Origin: Escherichia coli
GTDB taxonomy: Bacteria > Pseudomonadota > Gammaproteobacteria > Enterobacterales > Enterobacteriaceae
Assembly: GCF_003334385.1 (NCBI RefSeq)
Contig: NZ_QOWN01000222.1
Strand: one strand, 5' to 3'
Length of the DNA: 246 bases
The translations under genes and the position numbers were made by a program. Positions 1 through 246 of this stretch are shown here, piece by piece; position 1 is the stretch's first letter, and each line of letters opens with the position of its first letter. The notes beneath the pieces are model-generated. The model was not told where the DNA came from. It searched no databases and saw nothing but the letters and a program-made list of their open reading frames with translations.

Positions 1-29
1 ATACATGATCAAATACTCCTTACATAAAT

Positions 30-36
30 AAGGTGA
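30..36 (+). promoter_or_regulatory. Shine-Dalgarno-like ribosome binding site (AAGGTGA) for the transposase start codon
   Basis: Seen in sequence: purine-rich AAGGTGA at 30-36, about 4-5 nt upstream of the ATG at 41. The same frame is closed upstream by TAA at 29-31, so ATG 41 is the first start codon in that frame after a stop. Confidence 0.55.
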
Positions 37-40
37 ACAA

Positions 41-246
41 ATGGAACTTAAAAAATTGATGGAACATATTTCTATTATTCCCGATTACAGATAAGCCTGG
101 AAAGTAGAGCATAAATTGTCAGGCATCCTACTATTGACTATTTTTGCCGTTATTTCTGGTGCAGAAAGTTGGGAAGATATAGAGGATTTTGGGGAAACAC
201 ATCCCGATTTTTTGAAGCAATATGGTGATTTTGAAAATGGTATTCC
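41..246 (+). pseudogene. ISAs1-family transposase (H-repeat-associated protein), N-terminal region, interrupted by an in-frame TAA at 92-94; the frame continues past the 3' window edge
   Basis: Manual translation from ATG 41 gives MELKKLMEHISIIPDYR, then a stop, then [50 protein letters not shown] in the same frame. From memory this matches the conserved N-terminus of enterobacterial ISAs1-family transposases (for example the E. coli YhhI/YbfD/YdcC H-rpt proteins), which have Gln where this sequence has the stop. The only stops in this frame in the window are at 29-31 and 92-94. No alignment was run; the identification is recalled. Confidence 0.7.

Follow-up and report, generated by a model that had tools for sequence, protein, structure and literature searches.

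The 246-nt stretch of Escherichia coli DNA analyzed here (the window) very probably belongs to a ybfL-type copy of the H-repeat (ISEc1, ISAs1 family), the transposase gene of which became a pseudogene through a change of codon 18 from CAA to TAA. The stop is that of the ybfL-type nonsense pseudogene of H-repeat/ISEc1, which is already annotated and known, and the TAA is a common natural allele found in about half of the complete E. coli genomes. The features of the window are listed in Table 1.

Table 1. Features of the 246-nt window, with their coordinates and the evidence for them.
Feature	Coordinates	Strand	Evidence
5' untranslated part, internal to the H-repeat (ISEc1) element	1..40	+	alignment of the upstream regions of six copies
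Shine-Dalgarno-like AAGGTG	30-35	+	SD:anti-SD duplex with the ATG predicted at -4.9 kcal/mol
Transposase start codon ATG (41-43) and codons 1-17, MELKKLMEHISIIPDYR	41..91	+	translation
In-frame ochre stop TAA, codon 18; C-to-T nonsense mutation of CAA (Gln)	92..94	+	
Transposase codons 19-68 plus 2 nt, open and conserved, part of DDE_Tnp_1_assoc	95..246	+	
In-frame TTG, codon 26; first possible restart codon 3' of the stop	116..118	+	
T190, C204 and T211, differing from the common ybfL allele (C, T, C)	190..211	+	

Translation of nucleotides 41-246 confirmed the claim of an earlier note on this sequence that TAA occupies codon 18, with positions 89-97 reading AGA TAA GCC, and the frame was found to be open from this TAA at 92-94 to the end of the window. 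Only the 17 codons of MELKKLMEHISIIPDYR can be translated from the normal ATG start. These first 17 residues, together with the start codon, were the same in YhhI, YbfD and intact YbfL, and YdcC had one residue different. The frame matched the intact paralogues before and after the stop, with 91-97% amino acid identity over the 68 codons of the window. Since the match extends to either side of the TAA, the stop cannot be put down to chance in a random frame. Codon 18 falls within the Pfam domain DDE_Tnp_1_assoc (residues 8-94), a conserved N-terminal domain.

Alignment of the upstream regions placed the beginning of homology among six H-repeat copies ~142 nt upstream of the ATG, and the left terminal inverted repeat of the element was located ~100 nt upstream of the window, indicating that the window lies entirely within the element. 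The ribosome-binding site variant AAGGTGAAC-AAATG, with GGTG in place of GGAG and one A fewer, was common to ybfL, ybfQ and the copies at the yafV locus; in yhhI, ydcC and ybfD the upstream alignment showed AAGGAGAACAAAATG at this site instead. An Rfam search of the window with E values up to 1 returned no family, and hence no RNA element or recoding signal. Promoter-like matches in the window were at chance level (2 found versus 1.2 expected), and the minus-strand open reading frames of 29-30 aa were short and without support.

We searched the complete E. coli genomes by megablast, and the window was matched in 5,211 of the 5,426 genomes, the median number of sites in a genome being 5, which indicates that it is part of a repeated element. 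The best matches, which had one mismatch at position 190, were to a gene annotated in RefSeq as 'ISAs1 family transposase, internal stop'. This gene is flanked by ybfQ and ybfD, with rhsC-ybfB-ybfC further upstream and ybgA-phr further downstream, and it corresponds to ybfL (b0705) of NC_000913.3, which is entered there as a pseudogene. The MG1655 ybfL agreed with the window at 243 of the 246 bases (98.8%), with the same TAA and with differences at 190, 204 and 211, and ybfL in some K-12-like assemblies was identical at 245 of the 246 (99.6%), with TAA at the same base. The window also contains a set of ybfL-type bases (T79, A106, G109, G118, A121, G123, C124, C127, A133, T144 and A167, plus T92) that is common to the window and K-12 ybfL and that none of yhhI, ydcC, ybfD and ybfQ carries in full. 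The full K-12 ybfL frame consists of 379 codons, with stops only at codons 18 and 379.

Domain searches bore out the assignment of the frame to the ISAs1/H-repeat transposases that had been made from the letters alone. The conceptual translation with Gln18 and the 353-aa version both scored 414.6 bits with NCBIfam NF033564 (ISAs1 family transposase), which has a cut-off of 70. PF13808 (DDE_Tnp_1_assoc) was found at residues 8-94 with an E value of 7.5e-32, and the catalytic domain PF01609 (DDE_Tnp_1) at residues 102-343 with an E value of 7.1e-31, both in a full-length K-12-like sequence, of which the window covers residues 1-68 only. The K-12 ybfL element measures 1,290 bp between 18-nt inverted repeats that are 89% complementary (L003, 8683-8700 and 9955-9972), and these repeats fall outside the window. 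With TAA at codon 18, the copy in the window does not have the single uninterrupted frame of an autonomous element.

Comparison with known systems placed the window closest to K-12 ybfL, the middle of the three tandem H-repeats distal to RhsC, which is the same element and agrees with it in the start and in the TAA of codon 18; the window differs by its combination of T190, C204 and T211, which none of the complete E. coli genomes searched contained. The yhhI (RhsB) and ydcC (RhsE) copies of K-12 represent the same 1.29-kb element with a 378-codon frame and 95.8-96.4% nucleotide identity over the open reading frame. Unlike the copy in the window, however, they encode Gln (CAA) at codon 18 and keep an unbroken frame, and they have the stronger Shine-Dalgarno variant AAGGAG with one extra A. 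ISAs1 of Aeromonas, ISKpn31 and ISAs12 share the domain architecture and the NCBIfam equivalog, and their N-termini are conserved across codon 18, but their identity over the aligned N-terminal region is only 28-55%.

To the question of the ancestral codon the paralogues gave a uniform answer. All four of the other K-12 copies (yhhI, ydcC, ybfD and ybfQ) read CAA (Gln) where the window has the stop, in agreement with the expectation that intact copies encode Gln here, and the rare intact ybfL alleles likewise have CAA at codon 18. The intact sequence given in the earlier note matched YbfD and the intact YbfL alleles but not YhhI, which reads DYRQTWKVEHKL. Among more distant homologues, position 18 is Gln in Citrobacter, ISKpn31 and Salinivibrio and Ser in ISAs1, and Arg17 is invariant across the aligned ISAs1-family transposases. 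Since CAA is present in the paralogues and the intact ybfL alleles and the homologues have Gln or Ser, the proposed single C-to-T change at position 92, where the K-12 paralogues all have C, explains the stop. Neither the TAA 26-mer nor the ybfL-type CAA 37-mer was found in the GTDB species representatives, which therefore offer no outgroup species with which to date the mutation, and the literature mentioning ybfL contained nothing about the TAA at codon 18.

We examined the reality of the stop with an 80-mer (window 61-140) that includes ybfL-specific bases on either side of it. With TAA, the 80-mer was the best match, at an identity of at least 99%, in 2,667 complete E. coli records, and with C at position 92 (CAA) in 5 records. 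The 2,667 records are independent assemblies from many hosts, countries and technologies, and the K-12 reference is among them. Of the two outcomes that had been put forward, an inactive transposase copy or a base-calling error, the former was thus supported and the latter was rejected by the identical TAA context in independent assemblies. The exact 246-base window had no identical match in any of the collections searched, the 5,426 complete E. coli genomes among them, which would fit a base-calling or assembly error at position 92 in an otherwise intact gene, but the bases that make the window unique are 190, 204 and 211, not 92, and the same TAA is found in the identical 80-base context at three loci. 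We consider that there is next to no chance of such an error.

The TAA-bearing 5' segment was located in three places. It was present at the RhsC locus (L001-L003, L010, L012, L013 and L016), at an Rhs element beside yafV/ivy/fadE (L007, L008, L009 and L014) and at an Rhs element beside pptA/yddH/nhoA (L011 and L015, both truncated at the 3' end); 3' truncation was also seen in L012 and L016. The window is without flanking DNA, and the same 5' segment adjoins yafV and pptA as well. Since the window lies wholly within the element and TAA copies occur at three loci, an origin at RhsC cannot be assigned with certainty.

Compared with L003 8826-9962, the TAA copies were mosaic, the 5' segment being identical and the 3' parts matching different paralogues; the TAA copy of 2014C-3655, for example, equals yhhI from about nucleotide 676 onward. 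The stop at codon 18 was the sole lesion in all nine of the full-length TAA copies sampled, and the remaining 360 codons were open. Pairwise dN/dS among the TAA copies was 0.04-0.13, and the differences were mostly synonymous. Intact YbfL proteins of 378 residues were found in public assemblies (63 contig blocks), in the UniRef cluster of which YBFL_ECOLI, 'Putative protein YbfL', is the representative. The intact genes occupy the same RhsC locus (gene at 4001-5137 or 3310-4446) and are of two kinds. In the first kind (L017-L020), C at position 92 was the single departure from K-12 ybfL over the window region. In the second (L021-L024), ybfD-type sequence had taken the place of the 5' end as far as about window position 106, by which the stop was removed. 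The mosaic copies and the patch-repaired genes together indicate recombination or gene conversion between H-repeat copies, and we infer that homologous recombination or gene conversion carried the TAA allele from locus to locus, with transposition being less likely. The three H-repeats at RhsC of K-12 are all defective, ybfL because of the stop and ybfQ and ybfD through truncation, and yhhI and ydcC are the only full-length H-repeat transposase genes in K-12.

The three bases that set the window apart were also traced. T190, C204 and T211 match ydcC/ybfD-type sequence, and A167 and everything upstream of it are of the ybfL type. Intermediate combinations were found, with C190/C204/T211 in CP010445 and in strain I4 and C190/C204/C211 in L026. 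Window positions 140-246 had no exact match among the 5,426 complete E. coli genomes, and a search of metagenome contigs with a 58-mer spanning 190, 204 and 211 returned nothing. The combination is probably a short gene-conversion patch, or else comes from a source outside the collections searched, and it has no effect on the finding of the stop codon. T190, C204 and T211 create a hairpin and a T-run at 189-213. This terminator-like candidate, a hairpin at 189-207 with two G-T pairs among its six and T6 behind it, has a weak stem (-5.6 kcal/mol), and intact ydcC contains the identical sequence as a normal part of its coding region; for both reasons it was dismissed as very likely coincidental.

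On the reading that we prefer, the window derives from a dead, non-autonomous copy of the H-repeat, an element located distally in Rhs elements. The C-to-T transition turned codon 18 from CAA (Gln) into TAA, and ribosomes starting at the normal ATG would release a 17-residue peptide without any domain, leaving both the DDE_Tnp_1_assoc N-terminal domain and the DDE catalytic domain unmade. The element would be non-autonomous and yet keeps both terminal inverted repeats. Judged from its sequence, the TAA copy should yield no functional protein and no transposase. The base after the stop is G, and in E. coli translation ends efficiently at TAA in this context.

Several ways in which the stop might be tolerated were weighed against this reading. 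Translation could restart 3' of the stop, for instance at the TTG of codon 26, to give a 353-residue, N-terminally truncated protein that might bind or poison the intact H-repeat transposase. The ybfL feature of NC_000913.3 (736900..737961) begins at this TTG, at window position 116, and many gene callers start there as well, the 353-aa product being called on 579 contigs; such start calls are, however, mechanical, and the SD-like match of the TTG is weak and poorly placed (-3.3 kcal/mol versus -4.9 for the native ATG). The intact downstream frame of the nine sampled copies also speaks for a restart, and their low dN/dS, taken alone, could suggest that this frame is still under selection, but such values are equally expected with recombination from intact copies, and the mosaic structure and gene conversion account for them. 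We read the low dN/dS as variation imported from intact copies that had already been filtered by selection, and not as proof of downstream expression. The 3' truncation of several TAA copies (L011, L012, L015 and L016) argues against selection for a downstream product. The preponderance of TAA over CAA would also fit a functional restart product, for which the Tn5 inhibitor protein (Inh) provides an analogy. On balance, a restart of this kind seems unlikely. It is also distinctly unlikely that the TAA allele has been favored, which would account for its high frequency and its occurrence at three Rhs loci, either by silencing a costly transposase or by giving a TTG-26 product that would act, as in Tn5, as a trans-dominant inhibitor. 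According to the part of PMC3032704 that cites Zhao et al. 1993, H-repeat transposition has not been observed, which leaves no observed transposition that would call for an inhibitor.

Readthrough of the stop, by programmed recoding or a suppressor tRNA, would still allow the full-length transposase to be made, and one lesion only separates the gene from the intact 378-aa product. Ochre suppressors occur in some laboratory strains, and supB inserts Gln, but wild-type strains are without an ochre suppressor. Recoding is not known to us in ISAs1-family elements, and the efficient termination context and the result of the Rfam search also speak against it, making readthrough very improbable. The earlier note had allowed for a true start further downstream, in which case the TAA would lie harmlessly in the 5' untranslated region. 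The NCBIfam ISAs1 model does begin only at residue 29; PF13808, however, begins at residue 8, the same SD-preceded ATG is used by all intact paralogues, and homologues with as little as 28% identity can be aligned from a point within residues 1-13 and on through codon 18, where Gln is common and the preceding Arg17 is invariant. These alignments refuted the downstream start, to which we assign a negligible probability.

The nonsense pseudogene of the ybfL-type copy thus remains the explanation that we favor. The analysis confirms that a genuine, annotated nonsense pseudogene, and not an assembly artefact, was recognizable from the raw sequence. It also provides a small example of a disabling mutation passed by gene conversion from one repeated IS copy to another, with the nonsense allele occasionally being repaired by a patch from a neighboring copy. 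What is known of Rhs elements and ISAs1 transposases is unchanged by it.

A few observations on the annotation and the surroundings of ybfL were made along the way. In RefSeq PGAP records ybfL starts with codon 1 (ATG) and is marked as having an internal stop, and in NC_000913.3 its start is codon 26 (TTG). Strains differ in the structure of the tandem H-repeat array distal to RhsC (L006, L010, L012, L016 and L020). The array was found with three copies, with two copies (ybfQ and a full ybfL), with two copies that included a hybrid of ybfL 5' and ybfD 3' sequence, with TAA in some cases and CAA in others, and in a form in which ybfL is followed by an inserted IS5-like gene (PF05598/PF01609). 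In NZ_CP010441-CP010445 (L001), five assemblies labelled K-12 MG1655, the RhsC locus was located at ~1.50-1.55 Mb, not at 0.74 Mb, and ybfL differed from that of NC_000913.3 at window positions 204 and 211.
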